Shown in pieces: positions 1 through 62,970 of a stretch of 64,000 nucleotides of DNA (its first letter is position 1; every line of letters starts with the position of its first letter). Position numbers and translations under genes: made by a program. A model generated the notes under the pieces. That model was given only the letters and a program-made list of their open reading frames with translations. It ran no database searches and was not told the DNA's origin. This stretch comes from an uncultured Gammaproteobacteria bacterium (GTDB lineage Bacteria; Pseudomonadota; Gammaproteobacteria; Arenicellales; CAJQKF01), in the NCBI GenBank assembly GCA_905478855.1, contig CAJQKF010000034.1, forward strand, positions 2,633 through 66,632, given 5' to 3'.

Positions 1-2
1 TG

Positions 3-167
3 GGTTGGTTTAATCTGACTGGATTATTATCAAAGGCAGAGCAGCGCAATGCTGATGTGCTAAATGGCATTGCTTATGATTTACAGAATAACAGATTGTT
101 TGTAACTGGAAAATTATGGCCTAAGCTCTTTCAGATAAGGCTAAATTCGGAGGCAAAAGAAAACTAG
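3..167 (+). CDS. glutaminyl-peptide cyclotransferase family protein, C-terminal fragment (5' end lies outside the window)
   Basis: Frame 3 is open from the window edge to TAG at 165-167. The translation ...ADVLNGIAYDLQNNRLFVTGKLWPKLFQIRL matches, from memory, the C-terminal motif of bacterial/plant glutamine cyclotransferases (NGIAYD..LFVTGK.WP.LF). Confidence 0.5.
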   Translation, partial: GWFNLTGLLSKAEQRNADVLNGIAYDLQNNRLFVTGKLWPKLFQIRLNSEAKEN

Positions 168-731
168 ATATTGCTTGGAGGTCAGCAAACAAAATTCATT
201 CATATTGATGCTTATAATTACAGTGCAACACCGCGTATATCCCACTACCCTCTAAGCAAGTCTTCAGTAAGCGAAAATTATGGATTTTGTTTTGGTGTGA
301 CGGGATCTATAAATGCCTCGAAGTGGTACATTAAAAGTTGCGATCCTAGCGGACTATAAAGGGCCTACCAGTCCGGCCATATTATGTTATCTTTATCGCT
401 TTAGACTTTCGTGATTTACCTTTGAAACCAATAGTCACTCTATGCATCACAAGGAAACAGCCCCCAGGTTGCTTGTAAATACTCTGTTGGAAAGACGTCC
501 ACCGTTATAGAATTTCTAGAGCGTACAAACCGATTCGTAACAGAATATCAAGCCACTAAAACTGAGCACATGGACGGGTTCAAAAACAATCAAGTTATTA
601 AAACTTGCTGGGCTTTCCGAAGATCTTTGGTTCTGATTAAATGATCACGCGTCATATTGGATATGAACTTAATCCATCAGTTTCTGTAATTACCATTGTT
701 ATCGCAATACCTATTGGCTTTGGAGCGTAAA

Positions 732-1715
732 ATGACAAAAATCGCGATTATTGGCGCAGGCTTATCCGGCCTATCGATTGCGCATTTATTAAAAGATTAT
801 GCGCAGATCACTGTTTTTGAGAAAGCCCGTGGTGTGAGTGGCCGGTTGTCAACGCGACGAGCTGAACCGTATGTTTTTGACCACGGTGCACAATATTTCA
901 CAGCTCGAACACAAGTTTTTCAAGATTTCATCCAACCGTTTATCAAACAAGGCATTATTGAGCGTTGGAATGCCCGTTACGTAAAGTTTGATGATGATGA
1001 AATCGTTGAGCAAAAAAACTGGGTTGATGATGAGCCTCGTTATGTAGGCGTGCCACAAATGAACAAAGTTGCAAAATATCTGGCTGCAGGATTGAATGTT
1101 CATGTCAATACGCGAATTGTGTCTCTGGAACATGAAAAGTCATGGAAACTTATCGATGAAAAGGGTCACCTATATAATGATTTCGACTGGGTGATTTCTG
1201 CAGTACCTTCCCCCCAGGCAGCTGAGCTCCTGCCTTCAGCCTTTGCATACCATGCTAATATCTGTGCTATAGAAATGCGTGCTTGCTTTTCCCTTATGTT
1301 GGGTTTTTCGGAGCGCTTGCCGCTCGACTTTGAGGCTGCGCATGTCACTAATTCTGATTTAAGCTGGATTGCGATCAATAGCCAAAAGCCAGGACGCGTT
1401 GATCAATATACTCTGATGGTACATTCCTCTGGTGACTATGCGGAAGCGCATATCGATGATGATCGGGAAGCGGTTATGCAGCATCTTATTGCTCAAACAA
1501 GCCGCATCATTGGACATGATGTCAGCACGGCTGACTATAAAACCGTTCATGGTTGGCGCTATGCCAATAATGCGAAACGTGAAATCAGTCCCGTATTTTT
1601 AGATCAAAACCTAAAACTAGCCGCATGCGGTGATTGGTGCCTCGGCGGACGTGTCGAAGGCGCATTTACTTCATCTCACAGGCTTTTTTGCGCTATGCGA
1701 GAGCTTGCGTTGTGA
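732..1715 (+). CDS. NAD/FAD-dependent oxidoreductase (renalase-like, COG3380-type)
   Basis: The ORF 696-1715 most likely starts at ATG 732 (MTKIAIIGAGLSGLSIAHLL), which gives a GxGxxG dinucleotide-binding N-terminus followed by RGVSGRLSTRR and HGAQYFTA motifs. Its last ~180 nt are duplicated at 5499-5680. Confidence 0.75.
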   Translation: MTKIAIIGAGLSGLSIAHLLKDYAQITVFEKARGVSGRLSTRRAEPYVFDHGAQYFTARTQVFQDFIQPFIKQGIIERWNARYVKFDDDEIVEQKNWVDDEPRYVGVPQMNKVAKYLAAGLNVHVNTRIVSLEHEKSWKLIDEKGHLYNDFDWVISAVPSPQAAELLPSAFAYHANICAIEMRACFSLMLGFSERLPLDFEAAHVTNSDLSWIAINSQKPGRVDQYTLMVHSSGDYAEAHIDDDREAVMQHLIAQTSRIIGHDVSTADYKTVHGWRYANNAKREISPVFLDQNLKLAACGDWCLGGRVEGAFTSSHRLFCAMRELAL

Positions 1716-1773
1716 GCGTGGAGCTGAAAATGTCGTTGTAATTGGTACACCGAATGGGATTGGAGGTTTTATT
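1538..1773 (+). repeat. left direct repeat (attL-like): 3' end of the oxidoreductase gene plus ~58 nt downstream
   Basis: Aligned by eye with 5499-5733. There are 3 substitutions up to the stop codon (1715). The ~58 nt downstream of the stop is more diverged: two further substitutions, a short diverged block containing a 1-nt indel, then the shared end GGATTGGAGGTTTTATT. Confidence 0.9.
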
Positions 1774-1953
1774 TCCACGCGTTTTTTTACGTTCTCTAAT
1801 CGGACAATTTCTCATCGTTTTTGTTATAAAAATCATTTATGGTGCAAATATGCTGCAATTGTCCCGTGTTTGCTACCCTGTTAGCTTCTGAGCGACACCT
1901 AGTTGTATCTGTTTTCACTGGGAGAGTTCGTAACGCTAGCTACGAGATCCACC

Positions 1954-2541
1954 ATGGCGGCCATTCATAGAATTAAGACCAGTTCTGGCGCAATCAGATA
2001 CCGCGCACAAATACGCCGCAAAGGCTACCCTACGATGTCCAAGAATTTCCCAACCAAAGCCGCTGCGCGGGAATGGGCTAGAGGGGTTGAGCTAGATATC
2101 GCAACCGCTGCGGCTAAATTTAAACCTGATGTTGAGAAACACACTTTCTCAGAATTAATTGGTCGCTATATCGAAGACGCCCAACCAAGTAAAGATCAGA
2201 TCCGGCATATTAGGTGGTGGGACAAACATCTAGGCCATAAGTTGCTCCACGATCTGAAATTATCAGATTTCAAAGAGGCCCGACGGATCTTACAAAAAGA
2301 ACCCAAACAATTGGGGGGTGTCCGAGTGCAGACGCTAAAGCAGCCACGCACTCCCGCTACAGTTAATCGCTATTGCACCGCAGCCAGTGTTGTACTTAAT
2401 TATGGCACGGGAAAGAATGACGGGCCTGATGGCTGGTTAGACCGCAACCCAATGCGATCCCTTGGCAAACTAAAAGAGAGCAAATGTCAGGACGTCAGAT
2501 TGAACTTGCAGCTACACAGGAGAAAAAGAAGCATGGTTTAG
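1954..2541 (+). pseudogene. tyrosine-type site-specific integrase, N-terminal fragment only (arm-binding and core-binding regions; catalytic domain missing)
   Basis: MAAIHRIKTSSGAIRYRAQIRRKGY...ATVNRYCTAASVVLNY...NPMRSLGKLKESK is typical of the N-terminal third of phage/island integrases. The frame ends at 2541, and no R-H-R-Y catalytic domain appears in any frame downstream. Confidence 0.7.
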
Positions 2542-2818
2542 TTACTCGACTTAATAGTAATGTGTCTGGTGGGCTAAGTGGTGATCAATTTTACGTCTAC
2601 GTGGCAAATAGGTTGGTAATGCCAAACTTGAAGAAAGACGATTTGGGGAAATTTACTACGGGTGATAGCCGTTTCGGTGGATGTGAAATTACGGTAGTAT
2701 TATAGCGTTACTTCTTGGGCTTCCCTGTGATTTTATGGTTTTTCTGCAACTACGATTTTTCGAAAGCCAAGAGAGTGCCGTATGTTTTTAGTTTCTTCTC
2801 GAGGCCGCTGTCAGAATT

Positions 2819-5017
2819 ATGGGAAAAAAAGCAAGCATTTTTTTTGCAGTACTCCAAGGAGACAAGGTTCTTTCAAAAAAGCTCGACTCCACCCTGAAAC
2901 AAGTTGATGAATATCACTATGCGTTGTTTGATTCCGGTAATGGACGTTATTATCGGATTAACAATTCCTCAGCACTGATTTGGTCTTGCCTGGTTTTAGG
3001 AGATACTCTTTGTACCCTGTTCAGGAAACTGAACGAGAAACTGGATGCCGGCATTGATTCACAAGTCGTTGAAGATACGCTTGCTGTGCTTCATCATTTC
3101 GAAAGAAGAAAACTCATAAGGTATAGGCCAACTGTAAACTTAGAGGCTGAAGCTGAAAAACACCTCAGGCAGCGGATGCGAGAGGAAAAGAAGAGCGAAA
3201 GAGCTAAGTGGAAAAGTGTCAAAAGCTCACCGAAGCCAGTTGAAGTGATTCCGGAAGGTAAATACAGAGATGAAAAGCCAGGCACAGATAGTCGATATGC
3301 TATTATAAGTCATCGCAGAAGTGGCACCCACTTCCTGTGGGAAGTGATGCGACAAAACCTGGGGGTTGGCTTGGTGCCGGGTCAGTGTCTATGGGATATT
3401 CCCAAGATTCACGACCTGTTTTCTGCAAAACTTCTGCAGCGAATCAAGGATCGAAAAAGCCTATATATAATGCGGGATATAAGAGCCGTTTTGGTTGCGA
3501 ACTATAACTATTGGAAAAATGGCGAAAAAAGATACAACCTATCAGAAGTATTTCAGAAAATACCGTTGTCCAGTTATATACGGGGAGATATACCACTCGA
3601 TGGTGTTCCTGATGAATTAAGAGCTGAAGCGGAACAACTTTTCTCTGATCCAATTGAGTATTGGATCAGACATACAGAATGGTCAAAGCACGTGTTTACC
3701 ATTCGCTACGAAGACCTGAAAAGCAACGAAAAACATACAGTATCAAAGATAGCAAATTACCTTGGTATAAAATTTGATCCGCAAGATTACAAAGAACTTA
3801 TAAAGCTGGTGGGGCATCTTCCGCAGAAAGGAAAAATTAGCGCCTGGAGAGATGTTTTCACTGATGATGATCTAAGATTTATTTGGTCAAAAGTAGGTCA
3901 AAGGATGGAAGAACTCGGATATTCCGAGGATATAACTCACGCATGCCCTGAATCCAAGAGTGTTGAAACTAGGAACCACATTGTGCCAAATAATATTTTG
4001 GGTGGCGATGTAGAGTCTCAAATACGTTTTCGAATGGGTCGTTTTTTTGCTCCTGCAGCCTTGCCCGGCGATGAATGGGTATCTCGAGTTCCTGCTGGTC
4101 ATCATTTTTTGCAGTTTGAACATGGTGAGTTAAGAAGTGTAAGTGGGCCAGAGCAGCGTGGCATTCATCGACTGGGTAAATTCAAGGAGATGCTTGAAAA
4201 ACTTAAAATACCTAAATCACCTTTCTCTTTGGAGTTTTCCTGCGGAGACGCCGCAGCACAGCATGAAGTTAATCCAATTCACGGCCATTTCAGGGTTACC
4301 GGATCCGACGCAACAATTCTTTGGCCTTTGGCGGGGTATACGGATATTAATTCAAAAATCTTCGGAAAAAATGTGGGAAAGCATGATTGTTCTTGGGATG
4401 AAAAAATCGAGATTGCTGTATGGCGAGGGACGTCATCAGGTACGTCTTGGCAAAACAAGACGATTGATCAAATAGAAGAATGTATCAACAGGGCTTTGTC
4501 AGCGACTGATCGATTTGGAGGAAAGGTCTTGGCTAAAGGAAACCGACTTACCTTGGTTTCCCGATATTATGATGCCAAGTTTGTCGACGTCGGATTGTCA
4601 AAAACAGGGCAAACCGATGGTATTGCAAAGGCCTATTTCACCAAGCGGAATTTCTTAAAGTCAAGACTATCCGACTCAGAACTTTTGCGATACAAGTATC
4701 AAATTGTTGTCGACGGTAACACGTTTGCTTCCCAACTGCCTTGGACTCTGCATTGTGCAAGTGTGATTCTTATGGTTCCACCATCTTGGGAGTCAATTAT
4801 TGCTGGAATTAGACCTTGGCAGCATTTTGTTCCTCTGGCGCCGGATTACTCCGATCTGGAGGAGAAGGTAGACTGGTGTCGCGCTCACGATACTGAATGT
4901 CAAGAAATTTCAGCTGCCGCCACTCGATTGATGCGGTGCTACTATGACCCGCAAACAGAGCAGCAGATACAACAGGGATTGCTCGAGCAATACACTCAGA
5001 ATTATTTCAGCATATAG
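2819..5017 (+). CDS. three-domain fusion protein: PqqD/RRE-like domain, sulfotransferase domain, glycosyltransferase family 90 (CAP10/POGLUT-like) domain
   Basis: aa ~32-101: YALFDSGNGRYYRINNSSALIWSCLVLGDTL...VVEDTLAVLHHFERRKLI follows the PqqD pattern. aa ~159-370: SHRRSGTHFLWEVM (5'-PSB loop), LYIMRDIRAVLVANYNYW, IRYEDLKSNEKH..IANYLGI and KGKISAWRDVFTDDD are sulfotransferase motifs. aa ~430-732: WRGTSSG, KYQIVVDGNTFASQLPWTLHCASVILMV and HFVPLAPDYSDLEEKVDWC are GT90/CAP10 motifs. Confidence 0.7.
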   Translation: MGKKASIFFAVLQGDKVLSKKLDSTLKQVDEYHYALFDSGNGRYYRINNSSALIWSCLVLGDTLCTLFRKLNEKLDAGIDSQVVEDTLAVLHHFERRKLIRYRPTVNLEAEAEKHLRQRMREEKKSERAKWKSVKSSPKPVEVIPEGKYRDEKPGTDSRYAIISHRRSGTHFLWEVMRQNLGVGLVPGQCLWDIPKIHDLFSAKLLQRIKDRKSLYIMRDIRAVLVANYNYWKNGEKRYNLSEVFQKIPLSSYIRGDIPLDGVPDELRAEAEQLFSDPIEYWIRHTEWSKHVFTIRYEDLKSNEKHTVSKIANYLGIKFDPQDYKELIKLVGHLPQKGKISAWRDVFTDDDLRFIWSKVGQRMEELGYSEDITHACPESKSVETRNHIVPNNILGGDVESQIRFRMGRFFAPAALPGDEWVSRVPAGHHFLQFEHGELRSVSGPEQRGIHRLGKFKEMLEKLKIPKSPFSLEFSCGDAAAQHEVNPIHGHFRVTGSDATILWPLAGYTDINSKIFGKNVGKHDCSWDEKIEIAVWRGTSSGTSWQNKTIDQIEECINRALSATDRFGGKVLAKGNRLTLVSRYYDAKFVDVGLSKTGQTDGIAKAYFTKRNFLKSRLSDSELLRYKYQIVVDGNTFASQLPWTLHCASVILMVPPSWESIIAGIRPWQHFVPLAPDYSDLEEKVDWCRAHDTECQEISAAATRLMRCYYDPQTEQQIQQGLLEQYTQNYFSI

Positions 5018-5498
5018 ACTTTAGTAACGGCTTTTCAGCTGATTAGGATCATCGAAGCGCAGCGAGCCACTTCTGATTAGCAGAACTCCCGCTATCAGTC
5101 TTTATCGGTGGATATGTTTTGACGGTGTATGATTCATAATATAGCACCTACGCCTAGTACTGACGAATGATCTTTTGAGTACATAGTGAGTTGCAAAACC
5201 CAAGGGTTTTGCAATCCCTACCCTGTTAATTTTCGGATATGGGGCGGGCTTGGTTTCAGAAGCAAACTGTTTTTGTGGTTCTCTCCTTTTGCGGTCGGAT
5301 AGATAGCTTGAACAGTTATAAGTTGTTCTCGAAATTTCTTTTTGAAATTACGCTTTCCTTGGGGGCGTCTGGGTAGCCTGAACTGAATTGCATTTTTAAT
5401 CCTAGCCATGGGATACAAGTGGGTTTTCTTAGATAGCTCATGCGGTAGGTGAGCCAGCAATAAATATCTAACGATAGCGGCGAACGCTTAAGTAATTT

Positions 5499-5733
5499 TA
5501 AAACCGTTCATGGTTGGCGCTATGCCAATAATGCCAAACGTGAAATCAGTCCCGTATTTTTAGATCAAAACCTAAAGCTAGCCGCATTCGGTGATTGGTG
5601 CCTCGGCGGACGTGTCGAAGGCGCATTTACTTCATCTCACAGGCTTTTTTGCGCTATGCGAGAGCTTGCGTTGTGAGCGTGGAGCTGAAAATGTTGTTAT
5701 AATTGGGCTTCGGAGGGGATTGGAGGTTTTATT
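5499..5733 (+). repeat. right direct repeat (attR-like): displaced copy of the oxidoreductase 3' end
   Basis: Near-identical to 1538-1773. It would encode ...NNAKREISPVFLDQNLKLAAFGDWCLGG..., with one Cys-to-Phe difference from the intact copy, but has no upstream coding continuation. Confidence 0.9.
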
Positions 5734-5998
5734 GTCAATTTGATCTGACCTTAATTAAACCAGCGCTTACTGCAAAATATTTCTCGCTCAAATTATCCAC
5801 AGCGAGTTATTAAAATGAATTGCTCTTTCTACACAAGTCGGAGTGTTATGGGTAGTATTCACGAACCATGAGTCCGCTAGACCTTACTCTGAGAGTTACC
5901 TAGAAAGAAAGTCTACGGACTCGGTAACCGAAGGACTCGCGGCAATAATCAACCGCGACAGGTGCAGTTGATTCTCTTCTGAGCGGTTTTTCTTTTGC

Positions 5999-6283
5999 TT
6001 ATAGGGAGAAAACCACATCACCAGCATGGGGATGAATTGCATCGCCATCGACGATACCTGCTTCAATCATTTTACCAAATGCCATTTTCGCGAGGCCATC
6101 GGCTGCTTCTCTGGCGGCTGCATCAGGATATTTGGCAACAACAACGCCTTTACCATTGCCATAAGAAACGATGTCGATGAAATCGGCACCAATGTCTTTA
6201 AGCATTTCGCGCAAGCCCTCTGCCGTTTCAGCCACTTTGTCCATATCGGATGAAGCAAAACGTGTAATTCTGTAGACTGACAT
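5999..6283 (-). CDS. small hypothetical protein (94 aa)
   Basis: Clean ORF, MSVYRITRFASSDMDKVAETAEGLREMLKD.... No family recognised with certainty; it may have a small alpha/beta ferredoxin-like fold. Confidence 0.45.
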   Translation of the reverse strand: MSVYRITRFASSDMDKVAETAEGLREMLKDIGADFIDIVSYGNGKGVVVAKYPDAAAREAADGLAKMAFGKMIEAGIVDGDAIHPHAGDVVFSL

Positions 6284-6460
6284 ATAACCCTCGTGATTTT
6301 ATTTTTGTTATGTGGATCATTCCACACAAGCAGCCGATTATAGGCTGTGGATAATAGATAGTACACGGGCTACTTTTAGAAACCTTGTAATTATATATTT
6401 CATAAATTAGGTGAATGCGTGTCTGCTAAAATCACTTGCTTGGCTTTATAAACTACGAAA

Positions 6461-7498
6461 CTAACGCCAACTAAGAACGACCTTACCACTGCTACCCTTT
6501 AACATTTGCTTGAAACCTGTTTCAAATTCACTCGCTGGTAGACGATGGGTAATCACACCTCTGATGTCAAGTCCATTTTGAATCATTGCAATCATTTTGT
6601 ACCAGGTCTCAAATATTTCCCGACCGTATACGCCTTTAATTGTTATGGCCTTAAAAACAATTCGTGACCAGTCCACACTCGATTTACCCGCAGGTACACC
6701 GAGTAGGGCGACATTTCCGCCCATTACTAGCGTTTCGATCATTTGATCTAAGGCCAGTTGATTCCCGGACATCTCCAGGCCCACGTCAAAGCCTTGCTTT
6801 AAACCCAATTCAGCGGTGACATCATTGAGATCCTCTTTTAATGGATTAACGGCACGCACATCCGCAACTTTTTCAGCGAGCTGTAATCGATCGTCATTTA
6901 CATCGGTAATTACTACATTACGGGCGCCGACATGTTTTGCAACAGCCGCAGCCATAATGCCAATTGGGCCTGCACCAGTAATTAAAACATCTTCGCCGAT
7001 AAGGTTGAAGCTAAGTGCTGTATGCACAGCATTACCTAATGGATCTAAAATTGAGCCGATTTCGTCGTCGATGTCATCAGGTAACGGCACTACATTAAAT
7101 GCAGGGAGTTTTAAGTATTCGGCGAAGGCGCCGGGCTCGTTCACGCCTATACCTCGTGTTCCGGGATCTAGGTGAAATTTCCCAGAGCGCGATTGTCTTG
7201 AATTTTTACCAATTAGATGTCCTTCACCTGAGCAACGTTGGCCGACTGATAAGTCAGTAACAGCCGAGCCTAGTTCAACTATTTCTCCACTGAACTCGTG
7301 CCCGATGATGAGCGGCACCGGTATAGTTTTTTGAGCCCACTCATCCCAGTTCCAGATATGTAGATCCGTTCCACAAATAGCGGTTTTATTAATGCGTATC
7401 AGTACATCTTCTGCACCAATTTCGGGGATCGGTCGTGTCTCTCGCCAGATGCCGGGTTCAGCTTTCGATTTGACTAACGCATGCATAGTTTTGTTCAT
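6461..7498 (-). CDS. tdh: L-threonine 3-dehydrogenase
   Basis: [64 protein letters not shown] is collinear with E. coli Tdh. Its ATGA overlaps the upstream kbl, the canonical kbl-tdh operon arrangement. Confidence 0.95.
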
Positions 7499-8697
7499 GA
7501 TAAAACACCGGTTTGACGTCCTGCCTGTGCGAAGGCATTTAACGCAAAGTCCAGATCATCTCGACTTAATGCTGCGTTCATTTGAGTTCTTATTCTGGCT
7601 TCCCCATCTGGAACAACTGGATAAAAGAAACCTGACACATAAACCCCGCGTTCAAACAAATTCTCTGCCATAGTTTGAGCAAGCTGTGCATCGCCGAGCA
7701 TTACCGGCACAATCGGATGGTTACCGGGTTTTAAATCGAAGCCAAGATCGCTCAATCCATTTCGCCAGTACTGTGTATTACTAAATAATTGTTGCCGAAG
7801 ATGATCACCCTCTTCGATTAGTTTTAGTGCGGTTAGTCCAGCTTTAACCACCATGGGTGGAAGTGAGTTTGAAAATAAATAGGGTCGCGCGCGTTGGCGT
7901 AGCATGTCAATAACTGACTGAGGCCCGGCAACGTATCCACCGATGGCACCGCCCAGGGCTTTGCCTAAAGTTCCAGTAAGAATATCCACATCCACATTGA
8001 AATGTGCTGCAGTACCCTGTCCCTTAGGCCCCATAAAGCCGGTGGCATGGCAATCATCTACCATGACCAGTGCATTATAGGCGTGGGCCAGTCGTGTTAT
8101 CTCGGGTAAGTTAGCTAAGTAGCCGTCCATGGAAAACACACCATCTGTTGCTATCATGACAAAGCGCGCGCCATCGTTTTTCGCTTCCTGTAGTTTTTTC
8201 TCCAGATCTTCCATATTGGAGTTTGCGTATCTATATCGTTTCGCTTTGCATAAGCGAATGCCATCGATAATTGAAGCGTGATTGAGCGAGTCGGACACAA
8301 TGGCATCTTGTGGCCCCAGTAAGGGTTCAAATAGCCCGCCATTTGCGTCAAAACAGGCTGCAAAAAGAATAGAGTCGTCTTTACCGAGAAATGCAGCCAA
8401 GCGTTGTTCGAGCTGTCTGTGAATATCTTGTGTACCGCAAATAAAACGAACTGATGCCATGCCATAGCCGTATTCATCCAAACCTTCTTTTGCGGCGGCT
8501 ATCAGCTTAGGGTGATCGGCTAGTCCTAGATAGTTATTTGCGCACAAATTGATAACGTTTTGTTTAATTTGCTCGTTCTCAGAAACATCAATATGTCCAC
8601 CTTGGGGGGAAACTATCGGGCGCTAAATCTTGTATAAACCTTTATTCTTTATCTCGTTTAAAGAATTCAGAAGGTGTTCCAGAAAAGGCTTAGTCAT
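7495..8697 (-). CDS. kbl: 2-amino-3-ketobutyrate CoA ligase (glycine C-acetyltransferase), interrupted by one in-frame TAG at 8623-8625 (possible pseudogene or sequencing error)
   Basis: [12 protein letters not shown]...[12 protein letters not shown]...FSMDG...GTLGKALGG is collinear with E. coli Kbl. ATG 8697 gives [33 protein letters not shown].. in the same frame. The full length would be 400 aa. Confidence 0.85.
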
Positions 8698-8858
8698 TAG
8701 AATAATCCTGATATTGGGTGTAACGTTTATTGTGTTACTACACTATATTTTTTATTGCCAAATTTGCTTCGTATTTCATTTGATTATTTGAATAATTTAG
8801 AAGATTCTTCCGTATAATTGCTGTATTAAGAAGTATTTATCTTTTTTTGGAGATTTAA

Positions 8859-9323
8859 ATGAGTACAGTTATCCTTGATGCTCTTGATAAGAGAATTATC
8901 AATGAATTACAAAAAGATGCAAAGATCAGCAACGTTGAGCTTGCAAGAAGGGTGGGTTTATCCCAATCACCATGCTGGACACGGGTAAAAAACCTTGAAG
9001 GTAATGGTGTGATTACCGGCTATCGAGCAGTGATTAGTCAAAAGGCACTGGGTAAAACGGAAATCATGATGGTTCAGGTATCTATGGATCGTCACGACGA
9101 CAAAAGTTTCTCTATTGCGGAATCGATGATTAAAGACCTTCCCGAGGTAATAGAAGCCCATTTGTGCGCAGCAGAATTTGATTTTCTAATAAAAATTGCC
9201 ATCAGAGATACTCGAGAATTCGAGCATTTCTTAAAACAAAAAATCTATAAAATTCCCGGTATAAAAAACGTTCGTTCAATTTTGTGTATTCGCGACATTC
9301 TTAAGGAGGATGCAAACCAATAA
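8859..9323 (+). CDS. Lrp/AsnC family transcriptional regulator
   Basis: LDKRIINELQKDAKISNVELARRVGLSQSPCWTRVKNLEGNGVITGY is the HTH_AsnC region, followed by an RAM/ligand domain. 154 aa. Confidence 0.9.
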   Translation: MSTVILDALDKRIINELQKDAKISNVELARRVGLSQSPCWTRVKNLEGNGVITGYRAVISQKALGKTEIMMVQVSMDRHDDKSFSIAESMIKDLPEVIEAHLCAAEFDFLIKIAIRDTREFEHFLKQKIYKIPGIKNVRSILCIRDILKEDANQ

Positions 9324-9422
9324 CGCCTGATTTATATTTCGTATGCAGAATCGAATCTAATACTGCAGACTACGATGTCTTTTTATATAACAACATTGTT
9401 AAAAACCAAATAGTGAGAAAAA

Positions 9423-10568
9423 ATGTATTCCCAGCGATTGGATAACCTTAGACGTAGACTGGCTGAGCAAGGGGTTGATGTAGCAATCATCACCGATGAT
9501 GACAGTGTTTATTATCTCACCGGGTACTATGATTACTTGCACATGGAATTCGGGCGGCCAACTATATTGATTGTACCCAGAGATGGTAAAAGTTTACTTA
9601 TTACCCCAACCATTGATTTGGTCATGGCCGAGTCGAGCGCCAATGTTGATCGTATTGCTGCTTGGAACGATGGTGCAGGCAATGAGTGGCGCGAGGAATT
9701 ACCCGAGGCCTTAAGCGCCGCGGCCTGTATTGCCTTAGAACCTGATCATATGCCGCCCATGGTGCGCGCATATATCGACGCACTCATTCAGTCGAAAATA
9801 CATAAAAGTGTGACGTCCATTCTTGCCGATATGCGAATGGTTAAGTCGACTCAAGAATTACAGCTGGCACGCCACGCCGGTGAGGTAGCCGGTGCCATGA
9901 TGGCGGCTGGACGAAATGCTATTGGTGATGGTGTGCCAGAATATGAAGTAGCCCTCGCCACATCTGCAGCCGGTACGCGCAAAGCTGCTGAGCTATTAGC
10001 GGCACATTACGACGACACGGCCATGTCACCGAATACCCATTTTCTGCAGATCATGGCGTCTGGTGAAGAAATAGTAAAAACCCATCACCGTGCCACTACA
10101 CGTATTATGCGTCGGGGTGAACCGGTTTTTCTATGTTTTTGTGGTATGACCAATTTTCATCGTTTTAAGCTTGGCTTTGATCGAACATTCTGGATTGGTG
10201 AGATCGCTGATAGTCGTCAGGCTGAAATTTATGAGGTTGCCGCTGCCAGTCAGCAGGCGGCGCTTGGCGTACTCAAACCCGGGGTAACAGCGGAATCCGT
10301 ACATTCCGCTTATGCTGAGGTTATTCAGGGTGCAGGCTTTGATTATCCGTTCAGATGCGGCCGCGCAACGGGCTTTAGCTTTCTAGAAAAACCACAACTG
10401 GTAACGGGTGATAAAACAATTTTGCAGCCCGGTATGGTTTTAGCTGTTGATGGCTCGGTGGCAATTGATTCTTTTCGTGCGCAAGTAGGTGATAGTTTTA
10501 TTCTCAACGAACATGGCTATGAGCAAATTACCCATCACTCGAAATCGATCGACAATATAGTTTTATAG
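9423..10568 (+). CDS. M24 family metallohydrolase (Xaa-Pro dipeptidase / creatinase / ectoine-hydrolase-like)
   Basis: The layout is a creatinase-type N-domain plus a pita-bread C-domain (..MRMVKSTQELQLARHAGEVAGAMM.., ..GMVLAVDG..). Substrate cannot be assigned from sequence. Confidence 0.7.
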   Translation: MYSQRLDNLRRRLAEQGVDVAIITDDDSVYYLTGYYDYLHMEFGRPTILIVPRDGKSLLITPTIDLVMAESSANVDRIAAWNDGAGNEWREELPEALSAAACIALEPDHMPPMVRAYIDALIQSKIHKSVTSILADMRMVKSTQELQLARHAGEVAGAMMAAGRNAIGDGVPEYEVALATSAAGTRKAAELLAAHYDDTAMSPNTHFLQIMASGEEIVKTHHRATTRIMRRGEPVFLCFCGMTNFHRFKLGFDRTFWIGEIADSRQAEIYEVAAASQQAALGVLKPGVTAESVHSAYAEVIQGAGFDYPFRCGRATGFSFLEKPQLVTGDKTILQPGMVLAVDGSVAIDSFRAQVGDSFILNEHGYEQITHHSKSIDNIVL

Positions 10569-10627
10569 AAATATTTAATAAATGTATGACTATACAGTAA
10601 ATTGTTGCAAAAATGTACGCAACACTA

Positions 10628-10820
10628 ATGACCAATGTGATCGAAAAACTATCGAACCGAGCGCGCCAGCTACAACCCTGAAAAATTCGTGAAGTGGTTA
10701 AACCGGGTATGAAGCAAGGGGGTAATACCGCTCTATTTTGGAGAAGACTTTTGGCCAACTAGCCCGGATATATCCCAGGCGTTGGTTGATTTACTACAAT
10801 CGAACAATCATACGTATTAA
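10628..10820 (+). pseudogene. remnant of a class I/II PLP aminotransferase N-terminus (frameshifted, internal stop, truncated)
   Basis: Reads MTNVIEKLSNRARQLQP, then after a frame change NPEKFVKWLNRV*SKGVIPLYFGEDFWPTSPDISQALVDLLQSNNHTY*. GVIPLYFGE-DF-PT-P-I is the conserved N-terminal aminotransferase motif. Nothing follows it. Confidence 0.4.
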
Positions 10821-10886
10821 CCAAATATCATTAGCGCTGTTAAAAGGCCATGGGAGCGCATATGCCTTATAATGCATTCGATATTC

Positions 10887-12158
10887 TTAGATATAATCTA
10901 AATAAGTGCGTTGGATAGAAATCTGATCGGCAACGAACTTGGCGTCGTGCCAAACACCCCAGATAAATGATGATCCCCGTCTGGATTGCCAAGGCAAACC
11001 TACAAAGTACACACCGGGTTCGGTTGAAATACCACGTTCGTGTTTGGGTTTACCATCAACATCGAGTGCGTCCACCTTTAGCCAGCGATAATCGACGGTA
11101 AATCCTGTTGCCCATATAATCGAGTTAACACTAGCTTCGTGTAAATCAAGCTTCAATATGGGATTGGTTACACAGCTCGGGTCAGGACCTACCTCACGCG
11201 CTTGGGGCTCTATCGGAAAATTAAGACCATTACGCTCGATATAGGCATCGGCTTCATCTAACACAGATAACGTATTTATGTTGCCCTTGGCTATGTTCTG
11301 GACTAAGTCGTCTGTAAATTGCATTACTCCATTGTTGAATGATTCTGTCCGTCCAAGCAGGGTCATACCTTGATAGGCTAGGCGGCGAAAGTTTACGGTT
11401 TGCCCTCCATGAGCTCCACTTACGGCGATGGTCACATGTTCCAGCCCGGGCTCAAGAGCGACCATTTCCCATTTGCCAAGAACGCCTAACCACCAGACAA
11501 AATCCTTGCCACGGTAACTACGTGGTGGCAGATCATGGGGGCCAACGGACAAATATACTTTTTTCCCAGAACGCAGTAATTCGTCGGCGATCTGTGAACC
11601 GGACGATCCCGATCCAATTACAAGTACACCGCCGTCGGGTAATTGTTTCGGATTGCGATACTCACTTGAATGTATCTGTGTGATCCCCGATTGCTCAGGG
11701 ACGATGGGTGGAATGATGGGTTTTTGAAACGATCCAGTTGCCGCCACAATGTTTTGTGCTTCTATAACGCCGGTAGATGTTTCAATGCGAAAACCGGGGC
11801 GACCGATATTTTTCTGTGCATCGATGACTTCAACCCCAGTTCGTATCGGTGCATTAATCATTTCACAATAGGCAACAAAATAATCGGCAACGCTTTCTTT
11901 AGGAGCAAATGCGTCGTCATCGACATCGGAAAATTTTCTATTCGGAAATCGATCGTGCCAGGCGGGTCCGTTTGCCACTAGGGAATCCCAACGCTCCGAG
12001 CGCCAGCGCTCTGCGATTCGACTCCGTTCCAATACAACATGCTGTATCCCACAATTACTCAGGTGCTCACTTGTGGCAATACCTGCTTGACCACCACCGA
12101 CAACAACGGTGTTTACGTACTCAATATTATCAATAACATTATTACCTGAGTCATTCAT
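10887..12158 (-). CDS. NAD(P)/FAD-dependent oxidoreductase, flavin-containing monooxygenase-like (COG2072-type)
   Basis: Two Rossmann motifs are present, VVVGGGQAGIATSEHL and VLVIGSGSSGSQIADEL, plus an ATGF..motif near the C-terminus. Confidence 0.75.
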   Translation of the reverse strand: MNDSGNNVIDNIEYVNTVVVGGGQAGIATSEHLSNCGIQHVVLERSRIAERWRSERWDSLVANGPAWHDRFPNRKFSDVDDDAFAPKESVADYFVAYCEMINAPIRTGVEVIDAQKNIGRPGFRIETSTGVIEAQNIVAATGSFQKPIIPPIVPEQSGITQIHSSEYRNPKQLPDGGVLVIGSGSSGSQIADELLRSGKKVYLSVGPHDLPPRSYRGKDFVWWLGVLGKWEMVALEPGLEHVTIAVSGAHGGQTVNFRRLAYQGMTLLGRTESFNNGVMQFTDDLVQNIAKGNINTLSVLDEADAYIERNGLNFPIEPQAREVGPDPSCVTNPILKLDLHEASVNSIIWATGFTVDYRWLKVDALDVDGKPKHERGISTEPGVYFVGLPWQSRRGSSFIWGVWHDAKFVADQISIQRTYLDYI

Positions 12159-12451
12159 AAAAATACCTGTTGCACAATGAGTTACGTCCTATCGGGTGTC
12201 CCGTCAAAGCTGTTAATATTCAATAATGCCTACTGTGTGGAATTAACTAAAGTAATCATTTTTAACTTAATGCTTTATTTTTACTAAATCAATAATTTTT
12301 ACACTAAATGTGCAATAAGTGGGAATACGCTCTCTATGTTTTTTCGTTTGGATTAATGTAATGGCAGTATGAAAGGTGAATAACAGTCCGGTTTTTGATA
12401 CTGACTGTAAATCAAAGTATTTGAAAAAATAAATTGATTGCGTTTACGACG

Positions 12452-14008
12452 CTAGATAGCCGAGCTATTCATCATCGACGAACGTGGCAATCGAATGTCG
12501 AATTGCTCTCGTAGCGCAACATCCAATTTACTGTTGATATGCGTTGGATAATGCTGATCAAGTATTTGTTGCGTACGCTCGATAGCGATAGATCGAAATT
12601 CTCGGGTGCCGTCGTTTTCCCATTCAGTAATTGATCGACGATCCGCAATATCAGGATAAACGAAGTCACTTTGCATTCGCTCTAATGTCTCATTGCGACC
12701 AAGAAAGTGACCTTCACCATGGGCTACTTCATCAATTGAGTGAATTGCCAGAGTCTCGTCCGTTACTTCTATAGGCGTTAATGTCTTCATTATACTGCCC
12801 AGCATGTCATTGTCGATTACATAACTTTCCAGCGCGCAACCCATTAAACTTGCCTGCATTCCGCTAGCTTGGGTAACCAAATTTGAACCGGCGTGGGCCG
12901 CTAGTGTTACCGTTAGCGCTTTCTCGTAACCGCTTTGGGCATCAGCGACTTTACTATCCGTTGCACCGGCGATTGTTGAGTTGACCAGTCCGTAATAATT
13001 ACCCATTTGGGCGCTAGCGGCCATTGCTATGGCTCCCTCTGGACTGCCACCGCTCATTGCACCTGTGCGTAAATCGGTGAGCATTGGTCGAGTGCCAAAA
13101 ATAACTTTAGCTTGAGGATTAAGTAGCCAAGCAAAGATCATGCCTGCCAGAGTTTCGGCGATGGTCTGCGCAATTGTTCCTGCCATAGTAACTGGACTGG
13201 ATGCGCCCATTTGTCCAAAGGTATTCGAATGCACAGGTATGCCATAATAAACAGCTTCTGCCGCAATTTCACAGGATTCTGCGTCAAAGCGAAGCGGTGG
13301 TACCGGCATGTTACAATTTAACGATAGAAAAGGGCGTGCTTCAAACGCTTCCCTAGAGCCAGCGATCGTGTAGCACATCTTGGCTATATCTTTTACAAAC
13401 ACGGCGTTGGATGCCGCTGCAAATACATGCTTTTGCGTTCCTGCGAGGCACGCATATGCGGTGTTAATGTCGAGTGTCTTAAGGTCTGGCATATCACGGG
13501 CGACCAGCGACCGACTAAAAAAATGAATATTATCAAGATTGTCAACTAGCCGCGCGGCATCATATAAATCACGCAATGTTGAGTCTCTATAACGACCGGC
13601 CTTTAAATCCAATATCAACGGTGCAGCGCCACCCGATCCGACATAAACAGACGCATTCCCAAGGTGCAGATCGTATTTCGGATCTTGTCCACATAAACTG
13701 AAGTTACGTGCTAATCCCTGTAGGGCATTCTCAATTAGCTCACCGGTGAAATGTAGACGACCTTCAGAGTCTAGTCGTCCCCCGGCCTTGGTTACTTGAG
13801 CAATTACAATTTCTGGTGCTTCAATCATACCTATATCGGTAAGTATGGTTCGTACAGCAGTATCAATCTTTGGTAGGTCGCTGGCGTTTAGAGGCTGATA
13901 TCGTCCACCGGTCAATCCGCGCAGAATAACCTGCGCAGATTGCTTCGATGATGTGTCCTTACTTCTTCGTCGTCGCCGATTCTTAGTTGTTGGTTCCTTT
14001 TTGTGCAT
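12452..14008 (-). CDS. trimethylamine methyltransferase (MttB) superfamily protein, non-pyrrolysine type
   Basis: 518 aa with a basic N-terminus (KNRRRRRSK), then LTGGRYQPL..DL..ID.....IL..IGM and the usual MttB TIM-barrel length. The reading frame is uninterrupted, with no in-frame TAG. Confidence 0.75.
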   Translation of the reverse strand: MHKKEPTTKNRRRRRSKDTSSKQSAQVILRGLTGGRYQPLNASDLPKIDTAVRTILTDIGMIEAPEIVIAQVTKAGGRLDSEGRLHFTGELIENALQGLARNFSLCGQDPKYDLHLGNASVYVGSGGAAPLILDLKAGRYRDSTLRDLYDAARLVDNLDNIHFFSRSLVARDMPDLKTLDINTAYACLAGTQKHVFAAASNAVFVKDIAKMCYTIAGSREAFEARPFLSLNCNMPVPPLRFDAESCEIAAEAVYYGIPVHSNTFGQMGASSPVTMAGTIAQTIAETLAGMIFAWLLNPQAKVIFGTRPMLTDLRTGAMSGGSPEGAIAMAASAQMGNYYGLVNSTIAGATDSKVADAQSGYEKALTVTLAAHAGSNLVTQASGMQASLMGCALESYVIDNDMLGSIMKTLTPIEVTDETLAIHSIDEVAHGEGHFLGRNETLERMQSDFVYPDIADRRSITEWENDGTREFRSIAIERTQQILDQHYPTHINSKLDVALREQFDIRLPRSSMMNSSAI

Positions 14009-55709: not shown

Positions 55710-55786
<77 letters not shown>

Positions 55787-55817
55787 GTTTATTGTTAAAT
55801 GGTCGAAGTAAATATTT

Positions 55818-56180
55818 GCGCCCGTAGCTCAATTGGATAGAGCAACGGCCTTCTGGCCAAAAGAGTAGTATTTGGCGTGGAGCCTTTCGAGAGAAACAGA
55901 ATTTCGAGAGTGCAGGACACTGTATCGGTGAAACCTTAACGCGTAGCGGCGATGGCAATACCGAGGAAACCGGGATCTGAATAAGATCCGGTACACGAAG
56001 GGCGGATTTATTCGCGGGTAGTGTATCTAAGGGATCCGTAGAGACTATACGTGTCCCACCTGCGATGGTGAAGATATAGTCCAGACCACAAAGTTTGATG
56101 GGTTTCTATCAAATGCAACGAAAGTTGTAGCGGGTAAGCTAAGCCGTAGGTTACAGGTTCGAGTCCTGTCGGGCGCGCCA
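55818..56180 (+). tRNA. tRNA-Arg (anticodon UCU) gene split by a 286-nt intron. Exon 1 is 55818-55852 and exon 2 is 56139-56180.
   Basis: The joined exons give a perfect 77-nt cloverleaf: acceptor GCGCCCG/CGGGCGC, D arm GCTC-AATTGGATA-GAGC, anticodon stem ACGGC/GCCGT, loop CTTCTAA, T arm ACAGG-TTCGAGT-CCTGT, then G-CCA. It closely resembles E. coli argU. Confidence 0.9.
55853..56138 (+). ncRNA. group I intron (IC3-like), no ORF, in the anticodon loop of tRNA-Arg(UCU)
   Basis: The 5' exon ends in U, and its CUU can pair with GAG at 55863-55865 (P1). The terminal base is G at 56138. R-like box GTAGAGACTATACG is at 56038-56051 and S-like box AAGATATAGTCC at 56071-56082. Proposed pairings: P7 GACTATA/TATAGTC; P3 GGACAC (55915-20)/GTGTCC (56051-56); P4 TCGGTG (55925-30)/TACCGA (55959-64); P8 CACC-TGCGAT-GGTG. 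Confidence 0.85.
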
Positions 56181-56215
56181 GGTATTTTAGATTTTAACGA
56201 TTTGACAGTATTTAT

Positions 56216-56292
56216 GGTGAGCGTAGCTCAGTTGGTAGAGCCCCGGATTGTGATTCCGGTGGTCGTGGGTTCGAGCCCCATCGTTCACCCCA
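56216..56292 (+). tRNA. tRNA-His (anticodon GUG), with encoded G-1
   Basis: GGTGAGCG...anticodon stem CCGGA/TCCGG, loop TTGTGAT, T-loop TTCGAGC, ...CGTTCACCCCA. Close to E. coli hisR. Confidence 0.9.
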
Positions 56293-56307
56293 TTTTAAAT
56301 GTGCAAC

Positions 56308-56383
<76 letters not shown>

Positions 56384-56391
56384 GACACTTG

Positions 56392-56476
<85 letters not shown>

Positions 56477-56539
56477 TTTGTCTGGCTTGCTTCTATTAGT
56501 TCTAATGTATCAAACGACTATCCATATCCAGGACAAATC

Positions 56540-57838
56540 ATGCAGTCTTCACTAGAAACTATCGGTACTATTGGCCGAAAAATGACGATTACAATACCTT
56601 CGGAAAGACTGGAGGATAAAGTTGTCGAGCGTTTGAAATCCGTAACTCATAACGCACGTTTACCCGGTTTTAGGCCAGGTAAAGCACCGCGCAAGCTGAT
56701 CGATGCTAAGTATGGTCCACAGGTCGTAAGCGAAGTGGCCGAGCAATTAATTAATGAGGGATATCGCGAAGCGGTCACCGAAAATAAGATCATTCCTGCC
56801 GGATCACCGCGTATTGAAGCTAAGAAGATCGAACGTGGCAGTGATTTGGAATTTGTTGCTGAATTTGATGTTTTCCCAGAGATTCTAAAAACCAGTTTAG
56901 AAGGGGAAACCATAACTAACCCAGTTTGTTCAATTGGTGACGACAATATTCAAAATACAATTGACTCGCTTCGACAACGCCAGGTTAAGTGGGAAGAAAC
57001 AGAAGATGCGTCTGCTGATGGCGATAAGGTGACGATAGATTTTGTCGGAAAAATTGATGGCGAAGTTTTCGAAGGCGGAGAAGCAACGGACTTCGACCTC
57101 GTTTTAGGCTCCGGTTCTATGCTGCCAGATTTTGAAGCCGCTCTGTTCGGTGTGAAAAAAGATGACGTAAAAACCGTTGATGTCGATTTTCCCGACGACT
57201 ATCCCGGAGAAGTGGTTGCTGGAAAGACTTCATCGTTCAATATCACCGTGAAGAGTATCAACCATCCGATTCTGCCCCCACTCGATGATGAGTTTGTAAA
57301 GTCACTTGGCGTCGCGGCTGGAACACCAGAAGCACTTGATGCTGAAGTTCGGAAGAACCTAGAACGCGAATTGAACGATCGCATTCGTATGAATGTGAAG
57401 ACACAGGTCATGGATAAAATGGCCGAGTTGAACCCAATCGACGTTCCCCAGCAAATGGTTGAAGAGGAGCTGACCCGAATGGTTGAGCAAACTACAGCCC
57501 AATACCAACAGCAGGGCATGAAAGACGTGCCAATTGATAAAGAACAATTACGCCCTCAGGCCACCCGACGTGTTGCGCTAGGTCTTATTATGAGCGAGGT
57601 CATTCAGGGCAATGAAATTAAACTGGATGAAGATAAGCTAAGAGCACGTGTAGACGAAATGTCTACGGGGTATGAGAAACCTGAAGAGTTTGTCCAATGG
57701 CATTATGCTGATCGGTCCCGTCTAGCAAGTATGGAGGCGCTGGTGCTCGAAGATCAAGTAGTGCAATTTTTGGTCGGTTCAGCAACATCCGAAGATAAAG
57801 AAGTTGATTTTAAGGAATTTACTTCCAGTCAGGCTTGA
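56540..57838 (+). CDS. tig: trigger factor
   Basis: MQSSLETIGTIGRKMTITIPSERLEDKV....K.V.....LPGFRPGKAP. ATG 56540 is chosen because the ORF-track start (56447) overlaps tRNA-Leu. Confidence 0.95.
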   Translation: MQSSLETIGTIGRKMTITIPSERLEDKVVERLKSVTHNARLPGFRPGKAPRKLIDAKYGPQVVSEVAEQLINEGYREAVTENKIIPAGSPRIEAKKIERGSDLEFVAEFDVFPEILKTSLEGETITNPVCSIGDDNIQNTIDSLRQRQVKWEETEDASADGDKVTIDFVGKIDGEVFEGGEATDFDLVLGSGSMLPDFEAALFGVKKDDVKTVDVDFPDDYPGEVVAGKTSSFNITVKSINHPILPPLDDEFVKSLGVAAGTPEALDAEVRKNLERELNDRIRMNVKTQVMDKMAELNPIDVPQQMVEEELTRMVEQTTAQYQQQGMKDVPIDKEQLRPQATRRVALGLIMSEVIQGNEIKLDEDKLRARVDEMSTGYEKPEEFVQWHYADRSRLASMEALVLEDQVVQFLVGSATSEDKEVDFKEFTSSQA

Positions 57839-57904
57839 TTTTCGAGCCTGTTGCTAGCAGGTACTACGTAGAAATATGTTTACTAGAGAAAGGTCCAAAA
57901 TAGA

Positions 57905-59993: not shown

Positions 59994-60062
59994 TTTAGTA
60001 GTGCGCCAAAAATTAAAAGAACACCTCTGTTTAATATTGACGAGTGAAACCATTAGTCAGTA

Positions 60063-62960: not shown

Positions 62961-62970
62961 CGCGCCCTCA

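Follow-up and report, generated by a model that had tools for sequence, protein, structure and literature searches.

RiPP recognition element (RRE) domains serve as the chief class-independent means of discovering new peptide natural products, among them the peptides that are made by ribosomes and modified after translation (RiPPs), and they have so far been known beside cyclodehydratases, radical S-adenosylmethionine (SAM) enzymes, lasso proteases and similar proteins. RRE-Finder, in 2020 and again in 2025, listed fusions of an RRE to a glycosyltransferase (GT) of family GT2 as candidates that are uncharacterized (PMC7470986, PMC12710340). Known RiPP sulfotransferases comprise RaxST, SslST and putative methanobactin sulfotransferases, and no RRE is described on any of them in the reports consulted (PMC11143521); sulfotransferase genes adjoining lasso clusters are putative (PMC8498205). 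The only bacterial GT90 enzyme that has been partly characterized is the apiosyltransferase of Xanthomonas pisi (PMC6193724). The gene described here lies at positions 2819 to 5017, on the plus strand, of a 64,000-nucleotide stretch of contig CAJQKF010000034.1 from an uncultured gammaproteobacterium (assembly GCA_905478855.1), hereafter called the window, and its product joins a PqqD-type RRE, a sulfotransferase and a GT90 domain, in this order, in a single polypeptide. Our preferred reading, to which we assign a probability of roughly 45%, is that the protein is an RRE-guided enzyme that would O-glycosylate a peptide or protein and sulfate the added sugar.

RESULTS

Three domains in one protein

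The open reading frame (ORF) is intact, starts with ATG and encodes 732 amino acids (aa). An earlier interpretation made from the letters and their translations (the sequence-only reading) had quoted a series of motifs, and all of them are present where it placed them. Its assignment of three families also stands, with Pfam scores above the gathering scores and Foldseek folds in agreement. PqqD (PF05402) scored 25.6 bits at aa 34 to 100, above its gathering score of 23.4, and covered profile positions 2 to 67 of 67; Sulfotransfer_1 (PF00685) matched aa 210 to 329 with 40.1 bits (cut-off, 22), and Glyco_transf_90 (PF05686) matched aa 522 to 712 with 65.2 bits (cut-off, 24). In NCBIfam, the N-terminal domain stayed below the cut-offs of lasso_PqqD (22.4 versus 70 bits) and of PqqD_rel_X, the HPr-rel-A PqqD model (15.5 versus 35 bits).

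The PqqD-like RRE occupies aa 15 to 105 (positions 2861 to 3133, plus strand, as are the other parts of the gene), as delimited by Pfam, AlphaFold2 (AF2) and Foldseek; it consists of β-strands followed by three helices and carries the conserved helix-1 motif N-x-S/T-A-A-x-I-W. Next comes a Lys/Glu/Arg-rich linker at aa 106 to 155 (positions 3134 to 3283), recognizable by composition, in the AF2 model and in an alignment with six PqqD-sulfotransferase relatives (alignment A1). These three residues make up 46% of the linker against 21% of the whole protein. The linker is an insertion private to the window protein, missing in all six relatives, and is modeled as a long solvent-exposed helix (aa 106 to 134) followed by disorder, with a predicted local distance difference test score (pLDDT) below 50 for aa 135 to 153; it may be a spacer or an interaction surface.

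The sulfotransferase domain, of the type that uses 3'-phosphoadenosine 5'-phosphosulfate (PAPS), spans aa 156 to 370 (positions 3284 to 3928) according to Pfam, Foldseek and the invariant columns of A1. Its 5'-phosphosulfate-binding (5'-PSB) loop, SHRRSGTHFLW, is at aa 164 to 174, and both the SHRRSGTH part of this loop and the putative catalytic His198 (in PKIH) are invariant across the PqqD-sulfotransferase clade. The 3'-phosphate-binding (3'-PB) region, YIMRDIRAVLVANYNYW, is at aa 216 to 232. Further motifs are RYEDL at aa 296 to 300 and WRDVFT at aa 343 to 348, and the C-terminal motif reads QKGxxSAW against a clade consensus of RKGxxGDW. The window protein breaks 7 of the 64 clade-invariant columns in this alignment and 5 of 68 in the corresponding alignment of PqqD-GT90 proteins (A2), two of the latter falling in the PqqD region that it lacks. 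We considered a degenerate sulfotransferase domain and set the idea aside, 7 deviations in 64 being the same rate as in the relatives P0008 and P0013.

The C-terminal GT90 domain, resembling POGLUT and CAP10 proteins, extends from aa 396 to 732 (positions 4004 to 5014), as defined by Pfam, by sequence and Foldseek matches in the PDB, and by A2. Its motifs are WRGTSSG at aa 535 to 541, KYQIVVDGNTF... at aa 626 to 653 and DYSDLEEKVDWC at aa 676 to 687. WRG(T/S)xxG, the D/E in GSDATILWP, and KYxIxxDGN...SQLPW are conserved throughout A2; the N-terminal lobe of the domain is poorly modeled.

Relatives and origin of the fusion

Full-length coverage was given only by the protein's own cluster, both in a word-indexed search of 5.8 billion proteins and in an exhaustive phmmer search of 1.84 billion representatives, which makes the architecture unprecedented; the sequence-only reading had known of no characterized protein with this domain order. 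Independent marine metagenome assemblies (JGI, ENA and Logan) contain the identical protein on 16 contigs, always in the same context, and the fusion is therefore not an assembly artifact. The architecture occurs in a single clonal population only.

Partial relatives, whose modules were assigned by Pfam and a family-specific PqqD hidden Markov model (HMM), fall into four arrangements. PqqD-GT90 proteins are represented by P0002, which shows 60% identity, and by P0003, P0006, P0010, P0158 and P0159. PqqD-sulfotransferase proteins (P0007, P0008, P0012 and P0013) show 37 to 44% identity. P0004 and P0005 have the arrangement PqqD-sulfotransferase-GT25, and P0011, at 1,115 aa, has the arrangement PqqD-GT11-X-PqqD-GT90 with two PqqD domains. 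Together they form a rare family, seen in metagenomes only, whose catalytic domains are each preceded by a PqqD domain. The GT90 module of the window protein begins at E-x-Q-I-R-F-R-M-G-R-F, the same start after PqqD that the two-domain relatives show (A1 and A2). This shared starting point shows the protein to be a fusion of a PqqD-sulfotransferase with the GT90 module of a PqqD-GT90 protein, in which the second PqqD was dropped and the Lys/Glu-rich linker was gained.

Single-protein patterns recovered no close homolog among 185,579 species-representative genomes, and the PqqD-sulfotransferase alignment recovered from the same genomes only PqqD-less, mostly distant sulfotransferases and no PqqD-bearing relative. 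Viral contigs contained no GT90 relative, no PqqD-bearing relative and only sulfotransferases of 24 to 27% identity, leaving a phage origin unsupported.

The closest PqqD-less homologs of the sulfotransferase domain (P0153, P0017, P0154 and the enzyme of locus L008) are uncharacterized stand-alone proteins of about 215 to 230 aa that share 34 to 41% identity with it and have a 5'-PSB loop of the SHRRSGTH type. Locus L008 additionally encodes an NAD epimerase, a GT2, a UDP-GlcNAc 2-epimerase, a GT32-like protein and a methyltransferase. Loci L046/47 hold two sulfotransferases together with methyltransferases, UDP-GlcNAc 2-epimerase and other epimerases, GT2, GT17 and GT4 enzymes and an adenosine 5'-phosphosulfate (APS) kinase, and in L050 the sulfotransferase gene adjoins that of a GT9 heptosyltransferase. 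A scan of 27 sulfotransferase-homolog loci with the family-specific PqqD HMM turned up no PqqD ORF. Going by these loci, the sulfotransferase domain probably descends from sugar sulfotransferases, and the gain of PqqD would mark a switch of context or substrate class.

Predicted structure and fold matches

A full-length AF2 model built from 19 family sequences had a mean pLDDT of 70.7 and a predicted template modeling score (pTM) of 0.38. The N-terminal domain reached a pLDDT of about 88 to 90, the sulfotransferase domain mostly 80 to 95, and the C-terminal lobe of GT90 was reasonable. Residues 1 to 111 were also modeled separately (AF2, pLDDT 85) and given their own Foldseek search. This model has strands at aa 24 to 28, 34 to 38 and 43 to 47 and helices at aa 49 to 57, 64 to 74 and 81 to 96, that is, the winged-helix fold of RREs. 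The best match was TbiB1 with its leader peptide (5v1v; E value, 1.7e-4; template modeling [TM] score, 0.71; root mean square deviation, 2.8 Å over 86 columns), followed by TfuB1 with leader peptide, TigE, LynD, PqqD, ThcOx, TruD and CteB. Indeed, RREs or RRE-containing RiPP enzymes account for all of the top eight matches and for most of the top 20; the leading ones were solved in a leader-bound state.

In the PDB, the sulfotransferase domain matched SULT2A1, SULT7A1, SULT1C1 and many other cytosolic sulfotransferases bound to 3'-phosphoadenosine 5'-phosphate (PAP), with Foldseek E values of 3e-6 to 1e-5. The GT90 domain matched POGLUT2 (9w47; E value, 7e-9) and POGLUT1 (5l0t) by fold. By sequence, the single protein retrieved POGLUT2 at 1.3e-11 and POGLUT1 at 4e-6, and the profile of the PqqD-GT90 family (A2) retrieved POGLUT2 at 1.3e-20, POGLUT1 at 6e-10, Rumi at 3e-7 and PqqD itself (3g2b) at 2e-7.

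A decayed integrative island carries the gene

The sequence-only reading had described the gene as the single cargo of an island. The island is real, as its direct repeats and an integrase fragment show: it is about 4 kb long and bounded by 236-nucleotide (nt) direct repeats spaced 3,961 nt apart. The left, attL-like repeat (positions 1538 to 1773) forms the functional 3' end of a flavin adenine dinucleotide (FAD) amine-oxidase-like gene at positions 696 to 1715 plus 58 nt downstream of it; the right, attR-like repeat (5499 to 5733) is a displaced copy of the 3' end of this oxidase gene. A repeat search returned the pair as families D1 and D2, 98% and 91% identical. Each repeat contains the final ~180 nt of the oxidase gene along with downstream sequence; the island inserted into the 3' end of this gene and rebuilt it from its own 236-nt copy, and the original end, displaced, survives at 5499 to 5733.

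Between the repeats lie the integrase fragment, a 73-aa ORF, the three-domain gene and about 480 nt in which no gene is supported. The truncated tyrosine-integrase gene (positions 1903 to 2541, plus strand) retains the N-terminal arm and core-binding part: scanned from the internal ATG at 1954, it matched PHROG 1, integrase, with an E value of 2.5e-16 at profile positions 116 to 262 of 611. Since the match is limited to this stretch, the catalytic domain is gone, and no Pfam match to an integrase catalytic domain was found in the ORF. The island is presumably immobile as a result. As regards its cargo, the three-domain gene is the one supported gene, and two small ORFs lacking support accompany it. 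The first, of 73 aa, at positions 2484 to 2705 on the plus strand, overlaps the integrase fragment at the latter's end and lies 114 nt upstream of the three-domain gene; it is called as a gene in the metagenome copies, and had no match in Pfam, PHROG, PADLOC or NCBIfam and no similarity to the small ORFs of related loci. A Tyr-rich patch, DQFYVYV, and several Ser/Thr residues are present in it. It is possible that this ORF is a candidate substrate or precursor, or that it is a noncoding remnant. The second, of 80 aa, is at positions 5218 to 5460 on the minus strand. PHROGs likewise gave no match for the enzyme or the second small ORF.

A near-perfect inverted repeat, TTGCAAAACCC-AAG-GGTTTTGCAA, is found at positions 5191 to 5216, about 175 nt past the stop codon, and may be a terminator or the remnant of a recombination site. 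When the island was scanned for promoters and terminators, promoter-like sites were fewer than in shuffled sequences, and no consensus promoter was seen upstream. No PADLOC defense model matched, leaving a defense-system reading unsupported. Neither the island nor its flanks contain genes for sugar-nucleotide synthesis, an initiating transferase, a flippase, a polymerase or an ABC exporter. The flanking genes are housekeeping in kind: an amidase, a glutaminyl cyclase-like protein, the amine oxidase, tdh, kbl, AsnC, a peptidase M24 and a flavin-containing monooxygenase (FMO). No tRNA gene adjoins the island. Far from it, at positions 55710 to 63156, a tRNA cluster (Pro, His, Lys and Leu) precedes large ORFs that, judged by nothing more than size and order, resemble a tig-clpP-clpX-lon set; tRNA-Val and tRNA-Asp then follow.

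Loci of the PqqD-bearing relatives

The richest of the related loci, L006 (12.7 kb), encodes two small ORFs, a GT4, a PqqD-sulfotransferase, a PqqD-GT90, a GT1-like protein of 570 aa, a GT4-PqqD-X protein of 679 aa and an X-PqqD-GT90 protein of 757 aa. The first small ORF (positions 1906 to 2127; 73 aa) has a twin-arginine-like sequence, SDRRNVLKK (with a Tat-like RRNVLK), and a cleavage-like site, AHA-Q; the second (2171 to 2419; 82 aa) is Ser/Thr-rich. Each has a Shine-Dalgarno sequence, a hairpin follows at about 2441 to 2466, and the two stand directly upstream of the enzyme genes. By analogy with this classic layout for precursors, they are plausible candidate precursors, and L006 is the only related locus with small ORFs of this kind; like the small ORFs of the window, they had no NCBIfam or Pfam match.

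Other loci also group such enzymes. An NAD epimerase, a PqqD-GT1-like protein and a PqqD-sulfotransferase-GT25 are encoded together in L004; a DUF707-like-PqqD protein stands beside a PqqD-sulfotransferase-GT25 in L003; and L007 holds a PqqD-GT90, a PqqD fragment, a Methyltransf_21 and a Sulfotransfer_2 protein. In L025, L026 and L028, a giant gene like that of P0011 has transposase fragments and housekeeping genes as neighbors, and these giant PqqD-glycosyltransferase genes, like the window gene, appear to travel as orphan cassettes. The transposase fragments (IS256-like, as judged by eye, DUF772 and DUF4372) are at positions 4592 to 4843 of L025, 3009 to 3896 of L026 and 5843 to 6427 of L028. 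A gene of the Asp/Asn β-hydroxylase family (PF05118; E value, 1.5e-46) occupies positions 6497 to 7243 of L028, directly upstream of the PqqD-GT11-X-PqqD-GT90 gene and on the same strand. Animal members of this family share substrates of the epidermal growth factor (EGF) type with POGLUT, and bacterial members include the lipid A hydroxylase LpxO. L028 also contains a type I polyketide synthase (PKS; KS-AT-KR-DH-ER) near the P0011-like gene, on the opposite strand and with a transposase fragment between them. P0002, in L001/L002 (positions 1 to 13000), is encoded where two convergent operons meet within an aryl-polyene-like lipid cluster comprising a ketosynthase (KS), a chain-length factor (CLF), two acyl carrier proteins (ACPs), acyltransferases, LolA_3, MMPL and an FAD halogenase-like gene; it may be an insertion there.

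No gene for a flippase (Wzx), a polymerase (Wzy), an ABC exporter or an initiating (phospho)glycosyltransferase was seen in the PqqD-bearing related loci, nor any classical RiPP enzyme. The sequence-only reading would have been refuted, in its own terms, by homologs that always lie in lipopolysaccharide (LPS) or capsule loci with no peptide partner; canonical embedding of that kind was not found, and most of the neighborhoods also lack an obvious peptide partner.

DISCUSSION

A proposed RRE-guided glycosylating and sulfating enzyme

In our preferred reading, the N-terminal PqqD-type RRE would bind the recognition segment of a ribosomal peptide or small protein and hold this substrate near both of the tethered catalytic domains. 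The C-terminal GT90 domain would then move a sugar from a uridine diphosphate (UDP)-sugar onto a peptide hydroxyl, as POGLUT1/2 do on serine, and the central PAPS-dependent domain would sulfate the newly added sugar rather than a tyrosine, so that the product would be a sulfo-glycosylated peptide or protein. The substrate may be encoded elsewhere in the genome or by the 73-aa ORF just upstream. The gene owes its existence to the fusion of a two-domain PqqD-sulfotransferase gene with a PqqD-GT90 gene, and arrived on a small integrative element whose integrase has since lost its catalytic domain.

What the analysis shows is which domains and folds are present, how the fusion came about, the island, how rare the architecture is and the pairing of PqqD with transferases across the family; peptide binding, the nature of the acceptor, the order of the reactions and the placement of sulfate on the sugar are points that we infer from several strands of evidence. 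Among these strands are the precursor-like layout of the small ORFs in L006 and the lack of Wzx, Wzy, ABC-transporter and initiating-transferase genes in the PqqD-bearing loci. The alternative raised by the sequence-only reading, a coincidental N-terminal similarity, can be rejected because the nearest relatives of both halves carry PqqD, one per catalytic domain, and several of them are clustered. One docking domain per enzyme would fit the RiPP pattern, in which each tailoring enzyme recognizes the same leader, and nothing known in polysaccharide assembly predicts either this rule or the clustering of PqqD-fused transferases. The characterized animal GT90 enzymes POGLUT1/2 offer a precedent for protein O-glycosylation and, by analogy, favor a peptide acceptor. 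The analogy to tyrosine sulfation by RaxST on RaxX, drawn in the sequence-only reading, loses weight, and sulfation of this kind is disfavored: the nearest PqqD-less sulfotransferases sit in glycan or LPS loci, which makes a sugar a likelier acceptor of sulfate than tyrosine. Taken together, the PqqD rule, the GT90 precedent and the glycan ancestry of the sulfotransferase make the sequence of binding by the RRE, glycosylation and sulfation the most economical mechanism. The original idea of a peptide-tailoring enzyme thus gains from the RRE fold and from the PqqD-transferase rule; its partner peptide was not found in the island or the window, and the peptide substrate is conjectural.

A number of observations weigh against this reading. 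The island contains no precursor peptide or other RiPP gene and its flanks are housekeeping; a second PqqD-family ORF was not found within the 64-kb window; and an all-versus-all BLASTP comparison of 11 loci, covering ORFs of 25 aa or more, found no conserved small ORF beyond chance. Of the RREs that have been predicted, about 40% have no known RiPP genes near them (PMC12710340). One of the weaker fold matches of the N-terminal domain is the non-RiPP carbamoyltransferase GdmN, which means that the RRE-like fold is not confined to RiPP enzymes. The fused or neighboring partners in the family (GT25, GT11, GT4, Sulfotransfer_2, Methyltransf_21 and NAD epimerase) are enzyme types characteristic of the assembly of LPS or polysaccharides. 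As for the protein itself, three positions that do not vary among the six PqqD-sulfotransferase relatives are altered in it (D223A, R336Q and G341S). We take these to fall in the PAPS 3'-phosphate-binding motifs, by their presumed correspondence to SULT residues, and going by the substitutions sulfotransferase activity could be weakened. The N-terminal lobe of GT90 (aa 373 to 517) was modeled at a pLDDT below 50, so that this lobe and the arrangement of the domains are unreliable. The nine metagenome copies compared differ by 0 to 3 nt each and are clonal, which makes a selection analysis uninformative. We hold the probability at 45% because no substrate peptide was identified in the window, the set of enzymes looks glycan-like and folds of the RRE type are also found outside RiPP pathways.

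The partner enzymes just listed, together with the missing peptide partner and the location of the closest PqqD-less sulfotransferases in classical glycan loci (L046/47, L050 and L008), are what would be expected of a horizontally acquired enzyme that decorates a surface glycan in the manner of serotype conversion. Working at the cytoplasmic face, such an enzyme would attach a branching sugar to the LPS core, the O-antigen or the capsule and sulfate it, with the PqqD-like domain docking onto a glycan-assembly protein instead of a ribosomal peptide. A single-cargo integrase island is a typical vehicle for surface-antigen modification, and the bacterial GT90 of X. pisi makes a cell-associated apioside from an IS-flanked cassette (PMC6193724). 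However, this explanation accounts neither for a PqqD domain on every catalytic domain (two in one polypeptide), when the glycan-locus homologs have none, nor for related loci devoid of flippase, polymerase and initiating-transferase genes. To our knowledge, no role of PqqD or RRE domains in polysaccharide assembly has been described, which also counts against it; we regard it as unlikely, if a serious contender. A role in glycolipid or polyketide-lipid tailoring, in which an aryl-polyene-type or PKS-derived lipid would be decorated and the PqqD-like domain would dock a carrier or another pathway protein, draws on the closest GT90 relative, P0002, being encoded within an aryl-polyene-like cluster and on the PKS near the P0011-like gene of L028. 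That PKS is on the opposite strand behind a transposase fragment, though, the same giant gene occurs among housekeeping genes and transposase remnants in L025/L026, P0002 at its convergent junction may itself be inserted, and the window island has no lipid genes, so that we consider lipid tailoring highly improbable.

The protein might also be an evolutionary dead end, a recent chimera on a decaying island that is poorly expressed or partly active (with an inactive sulfotransferase, for example) and has no dedicated substrate in its host. The truncated integrase, the restriction to one clonal population, the three substitutions in PAPS-binding motifs and the failure to find an upstream consensus promoter would all fit. 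Yet the 2.2-kb ORF is intact on all 16 contigs, which come from several sampling sites and years, the deviations from clade-invariant columns (7/64 and 5/68) are no higher than in other family members, and the protein keeps its catalytic His, its 5'-PSB loop and its GT90 motifs. An outcome of this kind strikes us as improbable.

The reading of the window protein as an RRE-guided enzyme could be extended to its family. A new RiPP-like class might exist in which GT90, GT25, GT11, GT4 and sugar sulfotransferases, each bearing an RRE, would assemble an oligosaccharide, sulfated and possibly methylated, directly on a ribosomal peptide that has a leader, and of which the window enzyme would be a portable single-polypeptide version that installs a sulfated monosaccharide; we hold this wider proposal to be doubtful. 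If it were true, a family of RRE-bearing sulfotransferases and several GT families would represent new chemistry, the leader-guided assembly of sulfated glycans on peptides, of which the literature searched gave no example among RiPPs, and a compact three-in-one enzyme would be at hand for engineering sulfo-glycopeptides. Should PqqD instead work in glycan assembly, this would be its first nonpeptide role in polysaccharide biology and a warning for genome mining based on RREs.

Comparison with known systems

The lasso B1 proteins and PqqD (TbiB1, 5v1v; TfuB1, 6jx3; PqqD, 3g2b and 5sxy) share the fold and the Pfam family PF05402 with the window RRE and are its best structural matches. They are stand-alone chaperones that hand the leader to a protease, a cyclase or a radical-SAM enzyme, whereas the window RRE is fused to a sulfotransferase and a GT90 domain, and no lasso or pyrroloquinoline quinone (PQQ) genes are near it. 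Closer in concept are the RRE-glycosyltransferase fusions of RRE-Finder, likewise predicted to be leader-guided glycosylating RiPP enzymes and likewise uncharacterized (PMC7470986, PMC12710340); their glycosyltransferase is a GT2 (PF00535) of GT-A fold, in contrast to the GT90, of GT-B fold, and the sulfotransferase of the window protein. Within the parts of these two reports that were available, neither an RRE-sulfotransferase nor an RRE-GT90 fusion is mentioned in the main texts (PMC7470986, PMC12710340), and no PF05686 or PF00685 term appears in the supplement.

Among glycosyltransferases, POGLUT1/Rumi and POGLUT2/3 are the closest solved structures and sequences to the window GT90, and the residue that they glycosylate is a serine within a folded peptide module. 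They are, however, eukaryotic enzymes of the endoplasmic reticulum lumen that recognize EGF repeats directly, with no RRE, and their identity to the window GT90 is 14 to 18%. The X. pisi apiosyltransferase, XpApiT, is, like the window protein, a bacterial GT90 on a horizontally acquired element, in its case an IS-flanked cassette, and its acceptor is unknown (PMC6193724). By its description it is set apart from the window protein in having neither a PqqD nor a sulfotransferase domain and in being encoded together with a UDP-sugar synthase.

PAPS-dependent sulfation of ribosomal peptides is represented by RaxST acting on RaxX and by the lanthipeptide sulfotransferase SslST (PMC11143521; bioRxiv 10.1101/442517). 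Both sulfate amino acid side chains and have no fused RRE, and SslST is leader independent, whereas the relatives of the window sulfotransferase are glycan-locus enzymes. These glycan sulfotransferases of polysaccharide and LPS loci, at 34 to 41% identity, differ in turn by being PqqD-less and by lying within operons for sugar nucleotides and glycosyltransferases. An RRE-fused tailoring enzyme is thus known in kind; the pairing of its RRE with sulfotransferase and GT90 partner domains is unprecedented.

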